This document shows, one piece after another, positions 3 to 12,365 of a stretch of DNA of 24,000 nt; the stretch's first letter is position 1; every line of letters starts with the position of its first letter. The stretch comes from an uncultured bacterium (GTDB taxonomy: Bacteria; Bacillota; Bacilli; Lactobacillales; Streptococcaceae): positions 14,600 through 38,599 of the forward strand of contig CAUQNI010000011.1 in the NCBI GenBank assembly GCA_963519555.1. Reading direction: 5' to 3'. Under the pieces are notes generated by a model, which worked only from the letters and a program-made list of their open reading frames with translations, did not search any database and had not been told where the DNA came from. The position numbers and the translations under genes were made by a program.

Positions 3-419
3 TCATTTGCACAAATTGATAAAACTATTCAAGAAAGTGCAACAAAAAGGCAAGAATTGCAAGATGAAATGAAGAAGATTGAGCATGAAATAAAGCAGCT
101 ATCAATGACCATGGAGAACATTCATACCATAAAAAAATATCGGCACATATATCAAGTCTACAAAGAAGATACTACTGACAAAGCTTTCCTCAAAGAGAAT
201 CAAACTGAAATCACACTTTACCGAAATGCACTAAAAAATCTTAAAAAATCTTATGCAAAACTCCCTAACACAAAAAAAATACTCACTCAACTTGACCTCT
301 TACAAGAAAAAAAGAATACCCTTTTTCAAGAGTATTCTTCAACAAAAAATAGTATATCTGAGCTATATCAATTTAGAAAAAATTATGAAACATATCTAGG
401 GGAAGAGGTGGAACGTTGA
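3..419 (+). CDS. Relaxase/mobilisation protein, C-terminal coiled-coil part (partial, 5' end outside window)
   Basis: The frame of the 57..419 ORF stays open back to nt 3 (SFAQIDKTIQESATKRQELQDEM...), so the gene starts upstream of the window. The pattern ...IKKYRHIYQVYKE...FLKENQTEITLYRNALKNLKK..KLPNTKKILTQLDLLQEKKNTLFQEY...ELYQFRKNYETYLG matches, from memory, the conserved C-terminal tail of relaxases of clostridial/enterococcal conjugative transposons (...HKAAKKAFDEL..KLPT.K.L..EY..L..EKK..Y.EY...). No catalytic domain is visible. Confidence 0.55.
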   Translation, partial: SFAQIDKTIQESATKRQELQDEMKKIEHEIKQLSMTMENIHTIKKYRHIYQVYKEDTTDKAFLKENQTEITLYRNALKNLKKSYAKLPNTKKILTQLDLLQEKKNTLFQEYSSTKNSISELYQFRKNYETYLGEEVER

Positions 420-439
420 TAGAAATAATCAACTCCTCC

Positions 440-1246
440 TTACAAATTAATTCCAATTGCAGAAGCAATCATCTGTATTCCTGCACTTAAATCTGGCAAG
501 GCTGCAATAGAAGTAGCAATAAATTGCATACTTTTTAAGCAGGTTGCAAGTATAGATAATTTAGGAGTGCTCTCCCTCACTTCCTTCTTTAAAGTCTCTA
601 AATTTTGATTTAAAACCAATTTAGAGTTCTCATCTTCAATTTTAGCTATTGAAGATTCAATACTTTCTATTGCCTTATCAATCTTATCAGTATTAAAATG
701 ATTTACCTGCTCCGCATTAACTGTTCCCCCATTATCTACCACATTAACTTGTGTTCCGGAAGCATTAACATTGACATTAAAAATGGTATTTTGATTATCA
801 TAGCCCATATCCGTAGCTATGTCTTTCATATAATTTTCGATCTCACTAACAAAAGGATAAATCATCCTATCTCCAAATGCTTTTGCCATATCTTGATATT
901 TATTGCTACTGGCATAATACCAACCAAAAGTGTATGTATCCCAATTTTTATTAACAATACACAAAAAAGTTTGATACAATCGATAAGCTTTTTCTCTACC
1001 GTTACTTCCTAGCTTTAATGTAATTGTGCCGTATGAGTCATATACTTCCTCTAATGTTGACTCTAGTTCATCTATGTCAAAAGCAAGGGTTTCTAAATAT
1101 TCACTTAATAAAGGGGTTTCTTCAATAAAATCTAAAAACTCTTGAAGACTGTCATTCTGCTCTCTAAAGTGTGAATTCATCACATTTGAAGCCAGTGTTC
1201 TAAATTTTCTACTAATCTTTTTTAATTCATTTTTACTAATCTTCAT
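440..1246 (-). CDS. Hypothetical protein: helical N-domain, N/V/G-rich linker, coiled coil, C-terminal hydrophobic helix-Pro-helix (putative membrane-active effector)
   Basis: 268-aa ORF with ATG at 1244-1246 and GGAGAG about 8 nt upstream. It overlaps the upstream ORF by 11 nt. C-terminus is LSILATCLKSMQFIATSIAALPDLSAGIQMIASAIGINL. I recognise no family. Confidence 0.8.
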   Translation of the reverse strand: MKISKNELKKISRKFRTLASNVMNSHFREQNDSLQEFLDFIEETPLLSEYLETLAFDIDELESTLEEVYDSYGTITLKLGSNGREKAYRLYQTFLCIVNKNWDTYTFGWYYASSNKYQDMAKAFGDRMIYPFVSEIENYMKDIATDMGYDNQNTIFNVNVNASGTQVNVVDNGGTVNAEQVNHFNTDKIDKAIESIESSIAKIEDENSKLVLNQNLETLKKEVRESTPKLSILATCLKSMQFIATSIAALPDLSAGIQMIASAIGINL

Positions 1247-1697
1247 CTAGTATCTCTCCACAAAAAGGACAGTAGCCACCTTCAAATAAAGTCAGACTAC
1301 TTAATTTAAAAATATTTTCACAACAATAGCATTTCTTTACTTCATAGTCCCCAACTTTTCTATGTACAGAAGTTTCAGGTTCCCTTTTTAATTGTTTACT
1401 AGATTTAAAGTTTAAATTTTTACTATTGCTAAAGTTTTTTTCAAGCTCTTGTGAAAAATCATTTAATAAATCTACAACCTGATTTTTTATAAGACGATTG
1501 GCAGATTCTAAAACATCATCATCTAAGTAGTTATCATGTGTTAAACCACACTTTGGACACCAAATAACTATTAGTTCATCTGACTTCAAATCATCAACTT
1601 GAAGCATAAACTTTTCACTGCAAGAGGGGCACTTTAATAAAACATATCCCTCACCATCACTAGGTATAGAAATTTCTACTTCGTATGTATTTGACAT
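1236..1697 (-). CDS. Double zinc-ribbon protein (two CxxC...CxxC units), function unknown
   Basis: 153-aa ORF with ATG at 1695-1697 preceded by GGAAGGAG. Cys pairs are C23/C26 + C47/C50 (CPSC...CPKC) and C123/C126 + C143/C146 (CYCC...CPFC), separated by a polar helical linker. The tail is acidic (ILDED). Confidence 0.8.
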   Translation of the reverse strand: MSNTYEVEISIPSDGEGYVLLKCPSCSEKFMLQVDDLKSDELIVIWCPKCGLTHDNYLDDDVLESANRLIKNQVVDLLNDFSQELEKNFSNSKNLNFKSSKQLKREPETSVHRKVGDYEVKKCYCCENIFKLSSLTLFEGGYCPFCGEILDED

Positions 1698-1718
1698 ACA
1701 ATCTCCTTCCTCGATAAA

Positions 1719-1747
1719 ATTATAATTCTACTTTGGACAGTAATCAA
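1719..1747 (-). promoter_or_regulatory. SigA-type promoter of the zinc-ribbon/effector pair
   Basis: The minus strand reads TTGATT (1747-1742), a 17-nt spacer, then TATAAT (1724-1719). This sits about 22 nt upstream of the ATG, so the leader is short and contains the GGAAGGAG RBS. Confidence 0.55.
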
Positions 1748-3057: not shown

Positions 3058-3648
3058 TTATTGAAAACAATTGAGTATAAGTTGCCCACAATCATTATCT
3101 ACAAAATGGTTTAATGCAGACTGAATTACACTTTCTTGACAATATCTTAACTTCTTTTTAGCTTTTACAGTTACTACTTCTGGTCATTCAAAAGAGAATT
3201 TTGACCAATCAATCTGAGAATTTCTAAGGTCTGAAAACCCAATACGAATAACATCACTACGATCTGATAGAGCTTTTTCAACATTTTTACCCCATTTATC
3301 GGTTGAAGCTACGAAAATACCTGATTCGAAATAGTCTTCCACAATTCACCTAGGAAGGAATCTATATCTTTTTTTGAGATTGCATGCGTATAGAATTTTT
3401 CCTGAATTGCAACTGATTCTCCAGTAAACTTTTCCGCAACTAAATCTACTGCAGTATCAACTTTAGGTATTCCAAATTCCTATGGAACATCTGCTAGAAT
3501 CCATACATTCTTAAACTCATTCTGGTATATTGGTTCATTTTGAAAATAGGCAAGTGCTAAATACTCAAAGCATTTCCCTCTACCACGTTGCGTTTCAGCA
3601 AGTTCATTAATTTCCATCACTAAACGAACAATGCCATTATCATCCACC
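3058..3648 (-). pseudogene. Remnant of an Mrr-like (PD-(D/E)xK) nuclease / SF2 helicase restriction-like gene, 5' ~590 nt only
   Basis: Minus-strand translation gives VDDNGIVRLVMEINELAETQRGRGKCFEYLALAYFQNEPIYQNEFKNVWILADVP*EFGIPKVDTAVDLVAEKFTGESVAIQEKFY..ISKKDIDSFLGEL. A frameshift near 3310-3350 follows, then GIFVASTDKWGKNVEKALSDRSDVIRIGFSDLRNSQIDWSKFSFE*PEVVTVKAKKKLRYCQESVIQSALNHFVDNDCGQLILNCFQ*. In-frame stops lie at 3480-3482 and 3184-3186, and the original frame ends in a TAG at 3309-3311. The reading frame ends at 3058-3060, where intact homologues continue with the ...LIMACGTGKT Walker A motif. Confidence 0.7.
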
Positions 3649-3791: not shown

Positions 3792-4448
3792 TCATCGTTC
3801 ACTATTTATATCTTGTTTCTTTGGTTGTTTTGGATTTGTCTGTTCTTTCTTTTTGTACTGTTTGATTGCTCCTAACACTGAATATTTGTTTTTTCCTTTA
3901 AATTGATTTCGTGCTTTTAAGAGCTTAGAAGCAAGAACTCGTACATTACTATGAATCTTACCTTGGTCATCAATAGATGTACGAATCTTCCCAAAAATCT
4001 TGACAAAATCCCCTTGTTTAAAATTTTTGGGGATTTCTCCTTTATCTCCATAAGCCGAACAGTTAGTGTAGAATTTGTTCCCCTCATCATCCTTTGATAC
4101 AACTGAAAAATTAACAGCTGTAAATACTTCCCCTTCTCTTGTTTTTCTCTCAACCACTTCAACTTCTCCAACGATATTACCAACAAGATTGACCAGGTTG
4201 TTTTCTTCTATTTGCTGACTGTCTAATTGTTGGCTCAATTCTCCATTTTCACGTAACTCTTCAATCATCTCATCAAAGGTATCATTTAACAACATCATTG
4301 AGTCATTATTTTGATAGTTATCATACAGCTTATCAAGAGCTGACTGGTCATCAATTCCTTTTTCAAAGCTGATAATTGCTTTGGTAAACTCTTTATAGTT
4401 GTCTGTTGCCATTTGTTCTAGTTGTGCTTTCATATCTTTATAATCCAT
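3792..4448 (-). CDS. SSB-like OB-fold protein with N-terminal helical extension and Lys-rich tail
   Basis: The OB-fold-like core is NLVGNIVGEVEVVERKTREGEVFTAVNFSVVSKDDEGNKFYTNCSAYGDKGEIPKNFKQGDFVKIFGKIRTS...VRVLASKL. I prefer the start ATG at 4446-4448 (MDYKDMK...) because GGAGGA (4461-4456) lies 7 nt upstream. The track ORF extends to 4484, and another ATG sits at 4463. Confidence 0.7.
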   Translation of the reverse strand: MDYKDMKAQLEQMATDNYKEFTKAIISFEKGIDDQSALDKLYDNYQNNDSMMLLNDTFDEMIEELRENGELSQQLDSQQIEENNLVNLVGNIVGEVEVVERKTREGEVFTAVNFSVVSKDDEGNKFYTNCSAYGDKGEIPKNFKQGDFVKIFGKIRTSIDDQGKIHSNVRVLASKLLKARNQFKGKNKYSVLGAIKQYKKKEQTNPKQPKKQDINSER

Positions 4449-4473
4449 TTTTCTATCCTCCATTTGTATCTTT

Positions 4474-7400
4474 TTATCGTTCATCTAATACATTTATTTT
4501 TTCATCATTACTAGTTACTTTATCCTGTGATTGGTAATTTTTTATCTGACCTAGTATAGATACTTTCTCTTCCTTTTCATGCAGATTATCCTCCACATCA
4601 TAAGTGGATTCAAAAGCATCACTATCCCTAAAGTCATCGTCATAACGATCTGCAATTCCATCATTATCCATATCTTTTGAGAGTGGGTCATAAATGTTCC
4701 CCTCATCATCTCTTTCAAGTCCTGTTGCTGCTTTCAGTTCGTCATCATTAATCGATACGAACTCAGAAAAATCACCGTATTCAATTTCCATTTTCATAGC
4801 CTCAAGTGCTTGCTCTACTGTGCCATTTTCTTCCATGTATTGATAATGACTGATTGGTGTCTCATCTACGTACTGTGTCGCTGTGTAGTCTTCTAGGTTT
4901 AATTCAAATAAAATTCCGTGCTCTTCATCATTAGAGCTTGTGTAGGCGATATCTACATGTTTTAAATCGGGATAAAGCTCATTAAAACTATCATAACTAA
5001 AGTTCTCTGCATACTCTCTATTATAAAAGTCTATAATTGCTCGTTTAAGATCTTCTAACAAAGGATTAGATTTAGATATTTCTTCTACTTCTCCCATATC
5101 TAATAATTGATTGAGTTCTGCTAGTCTTAACACCTTTGTTTTCAACTCCTCTGCCTTTTCAAATGGCTTTTCTAATTCCGCTTTAGCACGTTCAAATTGA
5201 TTTTTGGTATTGCTGAGTTTATCTTCCAATCTTTCAAGTTTTTCAGGAATCTTATCTATGACATGATCTAATCTTATTAAATTACCTTCAGCACTACTTC
5301 CCAACTCTCCAGAGTGCTTTGCATGACCATTTAAACTAAATTGATATTCGTTGCTAAATACATCAAAATGAACTTCTAAGTCTAAATTTCGATATTGTCC
5401 TATTATTGGGGAGTCATTTACTTTTAAATTTTTAATAGACTCCAGCAACCTTTCCCCAGCAATTTTTTTGTCCTTTATTCTCTCACTATGAATCGTTAAT
5501 GATGTAAACTTATTATCACCAACTCCTTGAGGTTCAATAGTATTCAAATCCTCTTTCATATCTTGAATCAATTCTTTAGTGCGTCTGATTTCCTCTGGAT
5601 AATATGTTGTCACTTTATCTTCTAATCGATAACGGTTAGCTTTATAGTTAGCCTCTAACATTTTTAGTTTTGTAACTTCATTATCCAAATCCATTTTCTC
5701 CTTGATTTTAGGGTCTCCTGTTGCGAGAGCTTTAATTTCTGCGTAATTCAAACTACTCTCATCTACATCTTCTGCAACACGAACTGGGGTCTTACTAGTC
5801 ATGATTTGTGAGATAAACTTTTGCTTATTCTCGATTGTTTGCCATAGATAGGCATCAAATGTATTTTCTGTGATATAGCGATAGATATGAACTTCTTTAT
5901 TTTCATTACCTTGCCTGATAATTCTACCCGCGCGTTGCTCCAAATCAGCTGGTCGCCAAGGAACATCTAAGTCATGCATGGCAATTAATTTCTTTTGAAC
6001 ATTTGTTCCTGCCCCCATTTTTTGAGTCGAACCCATCAAAATACGGATTTCTCCTTTTCGAACTTTTGCAAATAACTCCTCCTTTTGCTTGTCTGAATTT
6101 GCCTCATGTATAAACGCAATCTCTTCTTTAGGTATTCCCAATTTGACAAGCTTATCTCGAATATCATCATAAATATTAAAACTTCCATCTCCTTTCGGTG
6201 TAGACATATCAGAAAATAATAGCTGTGTAGATTGGGGTTCTTTTGTATTTTCCCAAATCGCAAACACATTTTTCACGCATACATTCACTTTTGAATTGTC
6301 ATCATCAGGTAGTAAAGGATTAATCAATCGTTGATCAAGGGCAAGCTTTTTCCCATCATTGGTAATTCGTAACATATTATCTTCTTCTGGCTCTACCAAT
6401 TTGTTACGAACCCTCTCTGCTCTTTCAGACAAGCCTTGTAGGATTTGTTTTTGTTCTTCACTAGGAGTTGTCTTTATAACGTCAAAGTGCGCTTCAGGTA
6501 CAGGTAGTTTTAACATATCCGCTGTTTGAATATCTGATACTTCCTTAAAAAGACTCATCAATTCAGGCAAGTTATAAAATTTAGAAAAGCGTGTTTTTAC
6601 TCGATAACCAGTCCCTTCAGGAGATAATTCAAAAGCAGATTGAGTTTCACCGAAAGTCGAAGCCCAAGAATCAAAATGTTCCAAGCCATTCTTCTTCAAT
6701 TCATCATACTGAAGATAGCGTTGCATAGTATACAATTCTGTCATTGAGTTTGAAATCGGTGTTCCAGTCGCAAATACTATCCCTTTACCATTCGTCATCT
6801 CATCCATATACCGACACTTCATAAACATATCAGATGACTTAAAAGCTTCAGACTGTCCAATTCCTGCCACATTTCTCATTTTTGTATATAGATATAGATT
6901 TTTATAATTATGAGCTTCATCCACAATCAACTTATCCACTCCTAATTCTTCAAACGTGACAACATCATCTTTTTTGAAATCGTCATTCAACTTTTTTAAC
7001 TTAAGCTCTAATTTCTTCTTTGTCTTTTGAAGTTCCTTGACTGTAAAATGTTGACTGCTATCGTACTTGTATTCTTTTATGTAATCTATAATATTATCAA
7101 TCTGATCTTGAATATGCTTTTCTTGATATTCCTTTGACATTGGAATTTTTTCAAACTGACTATGCCCAATAATTACTGCATCGTACTCGCCTGTCGCAAT
7201 CTTTCCGATAAATCGTTTCCGATTTTTAGGCTCGAAATCCTTTTTATCTGCTACCATGATGGTGGCAGAAGGATAAAGCTGCATGAACTCTCTCCCAATC
7301 TGTCCAGTTAAATGATTAGGAACGACAAATAAGGTTTTGCTACACATACCAAGCCTCTTAGACTCCATAGCACTCGCGACCATTTCAAAGGTTTTACCTG

Positions 7401-10400
7401 CTCCCACAACATGAGCAAGCAAGGTGTTTCCTCCATAGAGAACTCTAGCAATCGCATTTTTTTGATGTGGTCTAAGGCTGATATCCGTACTCATACCATC
7501 AAAGGTTAAATTAGACCCATCATACTCTCTATTTCGTATAGAATTAAACCGTTCATTATAGATATTCACAAGTCGATTTCTTCTATCAATATCTTTGAAA
7601 ATCCAATTTTTAAATTCTTCTTTTAATAGCTCTTGCTTTTGACCTGCAAGCATCGTCTCCTTTTTATTTAAAACTGCTGTCTTTGAGCCATCTGGATTGA
7701 GAACCTGATCAAAAACTTTAGTTTCCTTTAAGTTGAGGGCATCTTCTATCAGTTTATAAGCACTCACTCGACTCGTTCCATAAGTTAACTCTGCCAAGTC
7801 ATTTCCTCTATCTTTACTCTTTCCTTCTACCTTCCACTCACTTGTCATTGGAGAAAATTTGGCTTTAATATCCCATCTCAAATAGCTCGGAGTTTTTAAG
7901 GTCTCAAAAATAAACTGTTCGATGTCTTTTGTTGGTAGCCAAGTAGCACCAAGTCGAACATTGATCTCACTAGCTTCTAATTCCTTCGGCATAACTTTTT
8001 CCAGCTCTGTCTTTTGGTAATTCAATTGCTCTAGCTCATATTCTAATGACTGACGCTCGTTCATTTGAGAATCTGAAAGCTGTGATTTTGCAGTTAACAA
8101 ACTAGCTATATAACGATCGATAATCCGAATTTTTTCTCGAATATTGCCACTCAAATATTCATCTTTTGGAACGTAAGTATAGTGAGTTGAATCTGTATCT
8201 AAACTACTAGTAAAAGGTAACTCACCTACCTCTATATCAAATGATGCTTCTGGATGAAAATAAGAATTCTCTTTATCTAGTTGTAAAAATATTTCACCTT
8301 TTAGTTCCTTGATTAAGGTATTCCTGTCTTTCGTGGTTAAGGCAGACATATATTCAAAATCAACGACTCCTTTTTGAGAAATTGAAAGTACCAACGCTTC
8401 AACTGAAGTATCAACATGTTCCACTGCTTTTGCCTTGGTAATCGTACGTTTAGTAAAAATATCTCCTTTCGCTTTAAAATTCTGTTCTTCATCTAGTATC
8501 TCAATGGAAGATACCAAGGGAAAGTTACTATCATCTCTCAATGCCCGTGTATTACTGAGAGTGTTGATAAACCCATGTTTTTTTGAAAAACTATCGTACG
8601 CTTCATTTAATAGTTGTTGCGCTTTTTTTATCTCTTCATCGCTGGTATCTTCTTTTTGTTTTTCAATCACTACTTTCAAAGCATTCTGTACAGTCAAGTA
8701 ATCCTCAATCTTTGACTTTATCTTTTCTGAGACTTCTTTTTTGATAAAAAGTGAATCTTCTCGGTAATAGACATCCCCATCGATTAGGGTATAAGAAAAA
8801 TTTTTGACATCATTTGTTGCTGCTAGTGTTTCTAAACTATCGTCATCTCGTTCAACATATTCGTACTTTGCATTTTGAGATATTTTTCTTCCCGCTTCGT
8901 TTAATAAGATTTCAAGAGATTCTTCATTTGGTACGCAAGTGAGAGTATCCCCAAATCTACCACTTACACTTTTCATATTACCAAGTACCATTTCGGGGTG
9001 TTTTACAAAATAACGATTATAAATCAGACCATTTTCATCTTGATCAAGATGAATCCAGTCATCATCTCTCTCTAGAATACTCTCTCGCTTCTTCAAAAAA
9101 ATAATATCAGAAGTTACTTCAGTACCAGCTACGCCTTTGAAAATCGTATTAGGAAGTCTGATAGCTCCTAAAAATTCTGTTCGAGCATTTAGATACCTTC
9201 TCACACTCTCATCTTTTTTATCCAATGTTCCACTGGAAGTAATAAAGGCTACAATCCCTCCATTTCTCACTTTATCAATTGCTTTTGCAAAGAAATAATC
9301 ATGAATAAGAAAATTCTGGCGATTATATTCTCTATCATTGACCTTAAAATCCCCAAAAGGGATGTTCCCAATAGCCAAATCAAAGAAATTATTGGAAAAA
9401 TTCGTCTCTTCAAAACCTTTTACTTGAAGATTGCTTTCAGGATAAAGTTTTTTCGCAATTCTTCCACTAATTGAGTCCAATTCAACTCCGTAAAACTTTG
9501 AGTGACCCATTTCAGCTGGTAAATTGCCTATAAAATTTCCTATCCCCATTGATGGTTCAAGAATATTACCACTTTGAAATCCCATATCAGATATGGTTTG
9601 ATACATACTGTCGATAATAGCTTTAGGTGTGTAAAACGCTGTTAACGTAGAAGCTTTTGCGGCTTCATATTCAGATTCTGAAAGAGTATCTTTTAGGAAG
9701 CTTCGAGCTTTTTCCCATTGCCCTTCTTTACTTTCATCAAATACTTCGGAAAGTCCTCCCCAGCCAACATATTTTGCTAATATTTCTTGCGAGTCTTGAT
9801 CTAAGATTTTGTCGCCATTTTCTATACTGTGAAGTGTTGAAATAGCCTCTAAGTTTCCTGCTAATCGCTCACTCGGACTTAGTTTTTCAGGAAACAACTC
9901 CTCTGTACTCTTATAATTTTTCGCCCCTATGTAGTTAGAATCTTTCTCTATCACTCTTAGATTTTCATTTACAGGAACCTTTTCTGAACTAACTTCCTCC
10001 TGATTTTGAAATTCAAATAAGTCTCCCTGAATCATCCCATTCTCTTGTACAAGACCTTTCTCATCCCCAACAGGTAAAACTCCTTCTAGTGGTTCCTTTC
10101 TTTCCAATTCTTTCTCAAAACTAAGTTCTCCATCAAATATCGAGTAAAGTTCTTCTTCACTCATTCGCTTTCTGAGTTCTGTATCTGTTAACTCCCTAAA
10201 GGTTTTAGGGAACTCTTCTGATAGCAAACGCTCAGCGTGGAGAGTTTCCAGTTCATGCAGATTAAAATATCCCCATTCAGCTTCATCACCTAATACCAAA
10301 CCAAAGGCATCCCCTGTTTCTTTATCATACTCCGTTAAATACCAGGTCCAGTCGCTCTTAAAAGGAATTGTATAAGCCGCATGCACTTCTTTTTCGCCTA

Positions 10401-11712
10401 ACTTGACATGTTCTTGTTCATAAAAAGAAGGAACTTGTTCCAACATTGCTTCCGTCATTAGATTGGTCGGATTTTCTTGAGAATAAAAAAAGGAAGCATT
10501 TTCTGCTTCCGCTGTTTTTGTTTCTACACTTCGATGATTTCCTTGATGATAATCTCTTTTAATGCCGATATCATCGCTTGATATTGTGGATGATTCTCGT
10601 CTGAAATCTGCCAAGCTTTCATCATCTTCGGTTTCTCTTCCCTCAGAAATTGAATAGCTCGAATTTGAGTCTCCATCAAGTGCTCCACTAGTTTCTCTTC
10701 CTTGTATAAATCCACGAGCAACTGATAATCCATCTCTTTCGGACTCTCTGCCAGATAATCGAGACGCATGACCGAGTAAATCGGATTTGGGAACTCCATT
10801 AGAAACTCCTCCTTGGTTTCCAACTGATTCAATGTTTTCTCCTTGATGAGTGATAGAATTTCCTCTGTTGTCTCCACTGTTGAAAATTCGCTTTTCTCCA
10901 TCATCAAATTGGGTATTTGTTCGAATCTCATGATCAAGCCCTCCTTGTGTGTGATTCTTTTCCTTATCATTATTATACTCTGTACTATCCTCTTTTGTCA
11001 GCCCCTTAGGCACAATTATTTGTCTACTTCGCTTCATCGTACCTTCTATCATCTGATGACAAGCAGATGATAGGCACTTCCCAATACTCATCAGTGAAAT
11101 AGAATCTAAGTTATCTCTATTTTGATTAACATCGTCAATTGTTAATGGGTAAGGGATATGGAATCTATTAGCAACCGCATAACTAATAGAATTTCTCATA
11201 AAGTGTGTAAACGTATCTCTTTCGTTTAGAGGGAGACTTAATTCATTACACAGATTATCAATCTCATCGTCAGCTATTAGTCTAGTTAAAGTATAAAGGT
11301 TTTCAACTAGATTTTCACTAGATTCATACCCCTGTTTTTCTATCATATCTCTCAGAATTGGTAGGTGCTGTTCTTGCTCAAATGACCACAACTCTACTTC
11401 ATTTACATTTCGATTAATTGAAATTGTTTGACTAATATCAAAAACATAGAAAATTTCTTGTGACGGATATTTGCTTAAAATTGGGATTCCCTTTTGCCCT
11501 CTTGTTACAGTCCGTTGAAATCGTTCTTTCCACATATCAAAGGTAGCACAAGCTATAGCTGTAGGACTTGATCTATAGATACTTAACTGATTGATAAAAT
11601 CATACCGTTGGTTATTACCAATCACCTCTAAAAGTTTTAGATATTCTTGAGGACTTTCTAACACATCTTTTTTAATCTCTTCGATTCGATTATTGAAGTC
11701 ATGTACTCTCAT
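4474..11712 (-). CDS. Polyvalent conjugative-element protein: ArdC-N-like ssDNA-binding domain, disordered linker, DUF2958-like, N6-adenine DNA methyltransferase, SNF2/DEAD-box helicase, C-terminal extension
   Basis: I prefer the start ATG at 11710-11712 (MRVHDF...), which has AGGAGG upstream. The track ORF runs to 11754. ArdC-N-like: [43 protein letters not shown] (~11380-11620). DUF2958-like: [35 protein letters not shown] (~10230-10400). MTase motif I is [11 protein letters not shown] (~9541-9570) and motif IV is GNIPFG (~9352-9375). Helicase motifs are GAGKTF (~7381-7416), VDEAHNYKN (~6901-6930) and [11 protein letters not shown] (~5911-5940). An acidic [14 protein letters not shown] motif lies near the C-terminus (~4640-4684). 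Confidence 0.95.
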
Positions 11713-11731
11713 ATTCTTCCTCCTTTTTTTT

Positions 11732-11765
11732 AAAAAAGAGACAATAGAAATCATCCTACTGTCTC
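11732..11765 (-). terminator. Intrinsic terminator between the 195-aa gene and the polyvalent-protein gene
   Basis: The minus-strand RNA reads GAGACAGUAGGA-UGAU-UUCUAUUGUCUC followed by UUUUUU. The stem is 12 bp including two G.U pairs. On the plus strand those pairs would be A.C mismatches, so the hairpin is specific to the minus strand. It starts 12 nt after the stop at 11778 and is followed directly by AAAGGAGG and the ATG at 11712. Confidence 0.65.
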
Positions 11766-11777
11766 GTCACTTTTATA

Positions 11778-12365
11778 TCATTTTGTTTTTATTAATTCCA
11801 TACATTCTTCTAACTTCATATTCAAGGCATTATACACTACTGTTTGAAAATCTTTTTCTCCTTTATTTCTAGATAAAATAAAATCAACTTTCACTTCATC
11901 ATGTAATTGATACCCCTTCAATATCGTTTGTGGTTTGGCTAATTTCGTCTTTGTAAAACCAATTGTACAAACTTTATCTGAAGAAGCGAAAGAACAAGAA
12001 ATCCTATTTTTATTAAAATTCTCTTCCACAACAATAGCTTCTGATGAAAATATTTGAATAGCATTCTCTAAGACACTCATCTTCCTACGAACAGAACCTT
12101 TTTGACTCTTATCATTGATTTCAAAGTCACCATCCTCTAAAGTCTTTTGATAACATTTTTCAAAAAAGTTTTTTGCTTTCAAGTTTGTGTGAACTCCTGT
12201 TAAATGCAAAAAATTATCCTCAAAAGCAGAAACGATATAATATTTCTGATATCTAAAATTTCTAGAGAAAATAAGGTAATCTTTCTGAACTAGCAATTCA
12301 TAATATAACACTGCACAGTCCATCAACTTTAATCGTACTCTTTCTTTAAATGATTGTTCTACCAT
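11778..12365 (-). CDS. Small nuclease-like protein, probably PBECR-type (phage Barnase-EndoU-ColicinE5/D-RelE-like) domain protein
   Basis: 195-aa ORF with RBS GAGGTGAGG. The FLHLTGVHT motif, the size and the position next to a polyvalent protein recall the PBECR families described for polyvalent-protein neighbourhoods. This is from memory only and is not verified by a profile search. Confidence 0.55.
   Translation of the reverse strand: MVEQSFKERVRLKLMDCAVLYYELLVQKDYLIFSRNFRYQKYYIVSAFEDNFLHLTGVHTNLKAKNFFEKCYQKTLEDGDFEINDKSQKGSVRRKMSVLENAIQIFSSEAIVVEENFNKNRISCSFASSDKVCTIGFTKTKLAKPQTILKGYQLHDEVKVDFILSRNKGEKDFQTVVYNALNMKLEECMELIKTK

Follow-up and report, generated by a model that had tools for sequence, protein, structure and literature searches.

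What do the two small overlapping genes beside the relaxase gene of a streptococcal conjugative element encode, and what might their products do? We analyzed this pair, genes A and B, in a stretch of 24,000 nucleotides (nt) from an uncultured bacterium of the family Streptococcaceae (GenBank assembly GCA_963519555.1, contig CAUQNI010000011.1, positions 14,600–38,599 of the forward strand), which is referred to below as the window. A model that read the sequence alone (the sequence-only reading) had proposed an undescribed two-gene defense, abortive-infection, or addiction module, in which a zinc-ribbon protein acts as sensor or antitoxin and its partner as a membrane-disrupting effector. By its sequence, the pair is already catalogued as PDC-M14, a computational candidate, and its recognition in the window is a routine PADLOC match; the module can no longer be called undescribed. 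Our analysis adds to the catalogue entry natural fusions of the two proteins, a conserved beta motif in protein B, corrected zinc ligands in protein A, and a form linked to Gabija genes, which are useful new leads.

Protein A matched the PADLOC model PDLC04447 with an E-value of 6.2e-51 (residues 1–148 of 153, model positions 1–149 of 152), and protein B matched PDLC04449 with an E-value of 1.4e-79 (residues 1–264, model positions 1–262 of 267) as well as five more PADLOC M14B models. The arrangement that defines PDC-M14 (A and then B, adjoining and on one strand) was also found. The locus agreed with PDC-M14 on every sequence point and is almost certainly a member. PDC-M14 is a phage defense candidate of PADLOC-DB v2 described by Payne, Hughes, Fineran and Jackson (bioRxiv 10.1101/2024.01.29.577857), who in 2024 put forward 145 computational candidates on the basis of genes nested within BREX, DISARM, or type I restriction–modification (RM) systems. 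In their Table S8 it corresponds to cassette CAS_00078 with the number 247 beside it, which we take as an occurrence count. A search of the available paper texts revealed no later publication mentioning PDC-M14 or studying the A–B pair. The earlier statement that neither protein belongs to a named family held for Pfam, NCBIfam, and PHROGs, in which no family scored above threshold for A or B, but not for PADLOC-DB, where the profile search retrieved the known candidate families PDC-M14A and PDC-M14B instead of pointing to a new family. Weak PADLOC matches to LmuB (E about 1e-3) were dismissed as coiled-coil composition.

Conservation of the pair was analyzed in 37 loci from 21 species-level genomes, metagenome contigs, and plasmids, representing 29 distinct contexts. 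Wherever the DNA preceding B was available (36 of 36 sources: 35 loci and the window), B immediately followed an A homologue of the same orientation, and this arrangement persisted down to about 24% identity. Conservation as a pair, a check named in the sequence-only reading, was thereby confirmed; the placement of the pair as cargo of a conjugative element was supported as well. The 11-nt overlap of the two minus-strand open reading frames (ORFs) and the GGAGAG upstream of the B start, described in that reading, were borne out by the sequence, with 5 nt separating the B ATG from the A stop codon that follows it. The same overlap occurred in 19 of the 29 distinct contexts, an overlap of 14 nt in four, and a gap of +1 to +12 nt in five distant ones. 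The ribosome-binding site of B is formed by the codons of the invariant residues Cys146-Gly147-Glu148 of A (TGT GGR GAG), and a GGAG-type site was present at this position in 21 of 29 loci.

Homologue searches yielded 18 sequences for A and 79 for B. A deep profile search with B in 1.84 billion cluster representatives gave 770 relatives, of which 354 had E-values no higher than 1e-10; the length was 255–275 amino acids in nearly all of the 770. Natural A–B fusions were present among them: six proteins of 404–417 amino acids (including P0161, P0173, P0176, P0214, and P0236) and one partial sequence (P0226), in which a full match to the A profile was immediately followed by a full match to B. 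The join falls exactly at the position of the overlap between the A stop and the B start, and Glu148 of A, part of the B ribosome-binding site in the two-gene form, was absent in four of five fusions. The existence of such proteins argues that A and B act as one unit. As judged from these sequences, A and B represent an obligate, translationally coupled pair, which is a single polypeptide in some lineages; fusion and translational coupling together make it highly probable that the two proteins form a stoichiometric complex. In one Oscillospiraceae metagenome assembly (L027:247–1567), the A gene was split by an insertion of ~800 bp (576–1367) containing an ORF of 276 amino acids without a Pfam match, and B and the 11-nt junction were intact.

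The AlphaFold2 model of protein A (mean predicted local distance difference test score, pLDDT, of 76) comprised a first ribbon with strands at residues 18–22 and 29–33, a 30-residue helix (60–90), a coil, and a second ribbon with strands at 118–122 and 129–133. In the homologue alignment, C23, C26, C47, C50, C125, C126, C143, and C146 were invariant. Of the two CxxC...CxxC ribbons proposed earlier, the first has four invariant cysteines, but the second site has the form CC...CPFCG: C123, previously counted among its ligands, is peculiar to the window protein. Zinc-ribbon Pfam matches to the first ribbon were weak and below threshold. The protein is strongly acidic (median isoelectric point of 4.7 and net charge of about −10; isoelectric point of 4.6 for the window protein), which favors protein binding over nucleic-acid binding; the nucleic-acid-binding module considered in the sequence-only reading is unlikely.

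Two described groups of zinc proteins were rejected as relatives of A. Its match to YgiT_finger (19.5 bits) was below the cut-off of 20.2 and covered one knuckle only, MqsA_antitoxin was matched with an E-value of 0.7, and no helix-turn-helix domain was found with Pfam or NCBIfam; A is below the family thresholds of MqsA/YgiT-type zinc-ribbon antitoxins and lacks their helix-turn-helix. The scores for Lar were also insufficient (22.5 bits for PF14354 with a cut-off of 28.6, and 16 bits for TIGR03655 with a cut-off of 39.6).

Protein B, which is acidic like A, was modelled with a mean pLDDT of 83.7. Seven helices were predicted within residues 1–146 (pLDDT >90), in agreement with the helical N-terminal domain of about 150 amino acids noted earlier; they were followed by residues 151–181 with pLDDT <40 in the monomer and by four helices at 186–264. 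In a deep alignment reaching about 20% identity, F124 was the only invariant residue, and only F15, Y111, and Q166 reached 90% or more. A catalytic site in the N-terminal domain was rejected: its candidate residues E29, D119, D146, and D150 were invariant in close relatives but not in the deep alignment. Neither conserved catalytic residues nor an enzyme signature were evident in the sequences of the pair, consistent with the absence of a catalytic motif from A in the sequence-only reading.

The best conserved motif of the family lies in the Asn/Val/Gly-rich stretch that had been regarded as a linker of B and is evidently not a spacer. Residues 156–182 of the window protein are F-N-V-N-V-N-A-S-G-T-Q-V-N-V-V-D-N-G-G-T-V-N-A-E-Q-V-N, and the consensus is Y-x-I-x-V-N-G-G, 0–5 residues, Q-V-N-I-A-x-D-N-S-T-I-N-A-T-Q-N-N; Q166 was retained in 48, N168 in 44, and A178 in 42 of 51 sequences. 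Its alternation pattern is that expected for three short strands with Gly/Asn turns. Because the motif is highly conserved yet unmodelled in the monomer, we infer that it most simply folds against a partner, either the ribbons of A or other copies of B. No comparable Asn/Gln motif was found in the homologue alignment of A.

The hydrophobic helices at the end of B had been interpreted as a membrane-inserting tail. They proved to be the least conserved part of the protein (mean top-residue frequency of 0.33–0.34 versus 0.49–0.50 elsewhere) and were not predicted to be transmembrane in the window protein or in 156 full-length relatives. According to simple hydrophobicity and insertion scales, on which all membrane estimates given here are based, the tail with its helices of 17 and 14 residues (230–246 and 251–264) reached at most 1.52 on the Kyte–Doolittle-19 scale, and its insertion energy summed to +4.2 kcal/mol. 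Among the 156 relatives, the median maximum was 1.32, 14% reached 1.6, and none reached 1.9; none had an insertion energy of 2 kcal/mol or lower. The tails of distant and fused homologues were amphipathic and lysine-bearing. A constitutive transmembrane hairpin in B is not supported by these estimates; conditional membrane association of the amphipathic helix pair is still conceivable.

Among PDB sequences, the profile searches recovered nothing beyond noise from coiled coils or zinc knuckles (E 0.0015 or worse). Foldseek, suggested in the sequence-only reading, gave no fold match for the AlphaFold2 models of A and B in the PDB or for B among viral structures of BFVD (best E 0.28), and no known toxin fold was found for B by this search. 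The highest-ranking matches, to Mcl-1 and the T domain of diphtheria toxin, lacked significance and were not used as evidence.

We propose that A and B may constitute a self-contained, non-enzymatic defense or abortive-infection module, carried as cargo beside the relaxase gene of a conjugative element. The acidic zinc-ribbon protein A would bind and restrain B, or would sense for B via protein–protein contacts. Upon a phage cue, B would self-associate through its Asn/Gln-rich beta motif and C-terminal amphipathic helices, and the self-associated B would arrest or kill the cell, possibly at the membrane. Taken as a whole, this proposal stands in our judgment evenly between true and false, while a defense role of some kind, suggested by the sequence context, is somewhat probable. 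We infer the division of roles, with A as sensor or antitoxin and B as effector; membrane damage as the final step is rather unlikely.

The genomic contexts of the relatives were analyzed for known or candidate defense genes within about three genes of the pair, assigned by cluster membership and Pfam/PADLOC annotation. Such genes were found in 20 of the 29 distinct contexts, supporting the defense-gene neighborhood assumed in the sequence-only reading. Only A and B were constant across the loci; the flanking genes varied. In Peptoniphilaceae and Granulicatella, AbiEi/AbiEii and an FRG/PDC-S15 gene were present upstream, and an AbiJ-like gene was located 8–14 nt downstream (L021:10821–11645, L023:10813–11634, L024:6481–7302, and L025:10813–11634, representing Granulicatella and three Peptoniphilaceae). 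The AbiJ-like protein consists of 273 amino acids and matched the Abi_C domain (E 3e-22) and PADLOC AbiJ (E 1.5e-13); together with A and B it may represent a three-gene variant. A Stk2/mad6-like kinase was encoded downstream of the pair in three streptococci, and other neighbors included Schlafen-type ATPases and a DrmD-like gene.

Some neighborhoods would also suit a guard or accessory module, in which A–B monitors or extends type I RM or Gabija with a short GajB and fires when phage inhibits its partner, as in PrrC/EcoprrI. In locus L028 the pair formed part of a type I RM operon, co-directional with its genes and inserted between hsdS and hsdR (hsdM-hsdS-A-B-hsdR), and in L037 it directly followed hsdR-hsdM-hsdS; type I RM genes were also located near it in L007, L030, L031, and L035. 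GajA and GajB were encoded directly upstream of A–B in Streptococcus agalactiae, Aminobacterium, Mobilibacterium, and Eubacterium brachy (PADLOC E 1e-199 and 1e-118), with gajA and gajB directly preceding the pair in L001, L007, L012, and L013. The resulting four-gene block of gajA (540 amino acids), short gajB (355 amino acids), A, and B (L001:6782–10807, L007:6830–10804, L012:1452–5426, L013:6836–10807, and L038–L046) recurred in the four genera and in eight of nine metagenome loci retrieved via the short GajB, a count that is not independent sampling, as the metagenome scan reached close relatives of one GajB only. In the ninth locus (L042) the block was decayed, with a truncated gajB and nothing downstream. 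Since A begins only 27–33 nt after gajB, co-transcription of the two is likely. Identities of the blocks were 78/75/66/60%, and the comparison indicates that all four genes were transferred together from one phylum to another. The arrangement may represent a Gabija variant that has so far escaped description; a literature search found no publication on this block. The "GajC" of PMC13069673 is an unrelated MazF-like protein. However, neither type I RM nor Gabija adjoins the pair in most contexts or in the window, where no gajA or gajB gene was found, and the change of partner systems argues for autonomy; the metagenome figure moreover reflects relatives of a single GajB. A guard or accessory role is therefore regarded as unlikely.

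Relaxase or type IV secretion genes were found within 10 kb of the pair in only 7 of the 29 contexts; the other 22 included a chromosomal island of Aminobacterium and non-mobilizable plasmids. Of 72,556 plasmid records searched, only two gave a match, and both of these plasmids are non-mobilizable; the pair was absent from 50,697 deposited phage genomes. In contrast to this absence, a distant pair (33% identity) of Clostridium sp. FP2 was located inside a prophage-like replication module (L036:1–16798) with genes for ribonucleotide reductase, dUTPase, Mu Gam, DNA polymerase III alpha, and Thy1. According to this distribution, the movement of A–B does not depend on transfer genes and extends over defense islands, RM operons, conjugative elements, a prophage-like region, and non-mobilizable plasmids.

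The distribution bears on a function in conjugation or establishment, or in anti-restriction aiding the entry of the element into new hosts. Such a function would agree with the name "conjugal transfer protein" given by NCBI to streptococcal homologues, with the position of the pair next to the relaxase gene, and with the weak match of A to Lar_restr_allev (E 1.4e-4). That match, however, is under the Pfam cut-off and reflects a generic zinc knuckle only, the pair is co-directional with the RM operons that enclose it, and most contexts are devoid of transfer genes. Anti-restriction genes are common in phage genomes, in which the pair was not found. We consider a function of this type extremely unlikely. 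A–B was also rejected as a component of the conjugative transfer machinery, given the few contexts with transfer genes and the lack of a match to a transfer family of Pfam or NCBIfam. As transfer genes are rare nearby and the plasmid copies are non-mobilizable, the NCBI label describes position, not function, and should be dropped.

The window represents a Firmicute conjugative element of the Streptococcus mitis group. It was 96.8% identical over 11.2 kb to a contig of Streptococcus mitis OMI649 and encoded TrbL/VirB6-like, PrgI, VirB4-like, and CD1107-like proteins, a CHAP hydrolase, and topoisomerase III, as well as a Dcm methylase, PBECR4, and a giant SNF2/Eco57I-like protein of 2426 amino acids. 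The relaxase gene is convergent with B and ends 20 nt away. On the other side, A is adjoined by a gene for a PD-(D/E)xK protein (PDDEXK_4, 24.6 bits with a cut-off of 22.3; PDC-S26, E 5e-11), beyond which remnants of an Mrr-type restriction gene were found (3184–3647, minus strand): an ORF of 52 amino acids (3184–3342) corresponding to the C-terminal part of Mrr_cat_2 (E 1e-9) and one of 55 amino acids (3480–3647) without a Pfam match. The PD-(D/E)xK nuclease and the restriction-like remnant named in the sequence-only reading were thus recovered, but no helicase part remains in the latter.

Comparison of the window (3792–11754, minus strand) with L001:1–1083 revealed a variable hotspot of defense cargo in this element family, bounded on one side by the relaxase and on the other by the giant SNF2/Eco57I-like protein and its neighbor of 230 amino acids. 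The hotspot contained the PD-(D/E)xK gene and the Mrr remnant in the window, and LlaJI-type RM and Gabija in S. agalactiae; the A–B pair was the constant right-hand component of the hotspot across the element family. A PBECR4 nuclease-domain protein (barnase/EndoU/colicin-like, 195 amino acids) was encoded at 11778–12365 on the minus strand, flanked by the genes of the Dcm methylase and the giant SNF2 protein.

The place of A–B beside the relaxase was fixed in seven elements, and identities with the S. agalactiae element were similar for the pair (59% for A and 54% for B) and for the backbone (62% for a backbone protein and 61% for the relaxase C-terminus). This fixed place and divergence in step with the backbone would fit an addiction module stabilizing the element or plasmid, with A as labile antidote and B as toxin. 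The layout, in which a small upstream gene overlaps the downstream one, resembles that of toxin–antitoxin pairs; AbiE-type toxin–antitoxin pairs occur as neighbors, and two non-mobilizable plasmids carry copies. Yet A lacks a DNA-binding domain that would allow autoregulation and scored below the MqsA/YgiT thresholds, B has no known toxin fold, and fusion is unusual, though not unknown, for antidote–toxin pairs. Many copies are chromosomal, within RM operons, and the pair is rare on plasmids. An addiction module is, on this evidence, improbable.

Several observations weigh against the proposed self-contained defense module as well. Guilt by association is the sole functional evidence. No recognizable defense neighbor was present in 9 of the 29 contexts. 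The membrane step lacks support, the tail of B being its least conserved part and having no predicted insertion, and the fixed place and backbone-like divergence described above would also fit a role benefiting the element itself, such as addiction.

The coordinates of the pair, its domains, and its putative expression signals are given in Table 1.

Table 1. Features of the PDC-M14 locus in the window (window coordinates)
Feature	Position	Strand	Basis
Gene A (PDC-M14A), acidic double zinc-ribbon protein of 153 amino acids	1236..1697	−	ORF and PADLOC PDLC04447
Gene B (PDC-M14B), acidic helical protein of 268 amino acids	440..1246	−	ORF and PADLOC PDLC04449
A residues 18–55, first zinc ribbon (CPSC...CPKCG)	1533..1646	−	Four invariant cysteines; predicted strands
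A residues 118–150, second, non-canonical zinc site (CC...CPFCGE)	1248..1346	−	Invariant cysteines; predicted strands
A/B overlap of 11 nt (A stop TAG 1238–1236, B start ATG 1246–1244)	1236..1246	−	Sequence
Shine–Dalgarno sequence GGAGAG for B, 7 nt before the B ATG	1254..1259	−	Sequence
Shine–Dalgarno sequence GGAAGGAG for A, followed by 5 nt (1702–1698) and the ATG at 1697	1703..1710	−	Sequence
Promoter-like TTGATT-17-TATAAT, 10/12 matches	1719..1747	−	Pattern match; position fits
Terminator-like hairpin with T-run, 13 pairs (3 G-C), 100 nt 3′ of the B stop	311..340	−	Pattern match only
B residues 1–150, seven-helix N-terminal domain	797..1246	−	AlphaFold2, pLDDT >90
B residues 156–182, conserved motif, three short beta-prone segments	701..781	−	Alignment
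B residues 186–264, four helices	455..691	−	AlphaFold2

The strong ribosome-binding site ascribed to A is present before its ATG. The near-consensus promoter credited to the pair can likewise be read in the sequence, but such sites were no more frequent in this AT-rich region than in shuffled sequence (25 observed versus 24.7 expected), so that taken alone it carries little weight. Its only conserved counterpart was in the near-identical locus L011 of S. mitis, and comparison of upstream regions across loci showed no conservation. The terminator-like hairpin falls within the convergent relaxase gene. An Rfam scan of the whole window gave no family match, a repeat scan of the locus revealed nothing relevant, and an antisense ORF at 698–1012 (plus strand) was judged spurious on account of its lack of conservation.

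If PDC-M14 truly acts in defense, its mechanism would be new, because the pair is devoid of enzymes and of known folds and is very compact, with about 420 residues in total, sometimes in one chain. In streptococci, an influence of the pair on gene flow and on susceptibility to phages is conceivable, since the pair rides conjugative elements of the oral or pathogenic species S. mitis, S. agalactiae, and S. suis. The natural fusions, the beta motif, the true cysteine ligands, and the Gabija-linked four-gene form offer starting points for experiments.

Compared with the definition of PDC-M14, the window copy matched the same models over the full length and in the same order, and its relatives in L028 and L037 are, in line with that definition, embedded in type I RM systems. 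It differs in occupying a cargo slot of a conjugative element by itself, not embedded in another system, and is otherwise of the same kind. PrrC was cited by Payne et al. as the model for such embedding (bioRxiv 10.1101/2024.01.29.577857). The gene of PrrC/EcoprrI is nested in a type I RM operon, as are some PDC-M14 pairs; however, PrrC is a single ABC-ATPase anticodon nuclease that depends on RM, whereas PDC-M14 lacks both ATPase and nuclease domains and is in most cases unaccompanied by RM.

RexA/RexB, KwaA/KwaB of Kiwa, and the transmembrane effectors of CBASS/Pycsar possess clear multi-pass transmembrane helices. The A–B pair resembles them in its two co-transcribed genes, in having no obvious enzyme, and in the hydrophobic C-terminal element of the window B. 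It differs in that the helices of B are not predicted to insert and its tail is unconserved, and neither A nor B had a PADLOC or Pfam match to these effectors. B was rejected as a transmembrane effector of abortive infection, since the simple scales gave no conserved predicted spanning helix across the 156 relatives.

HET-S/HeLo and the bacterial Bell/BASS proteins are death proteins of amyloid signaling, which combine a helical domain with a short beta-prone motif. B is similar in its helical domain and in its conserved Asn/Gln/Gly/Val-rich motif, unfolded in the monomer model; it differs in that the motif is internal, not terminal, and A carries no matching motif. No Pfam match to an amyloid motif was obtained for B at E 1 or better, and in view of this and of the missing partner motif on A, B was rejected as a described amyloid-signaling domain (HET-s, BASS, or RHIM). 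The resemblance to HET-S and BASS, drawn by analogy, offers a lead only. It would lead furthest if B were a new cell-death executioner, whose motif becomes folded only when subunits come together, in a beta-solenoid or an amyloid-like stack, and converts a latent A:B complex into a killing or arresting polymer, with A sensing a phage protein and restraining the motif. This possibility is very unlikely; if true, it would represent an action like that of HET-S and RHIM, performed by an unrelated sequence and widespread in Firmicutes and other phyla (770 clusters).

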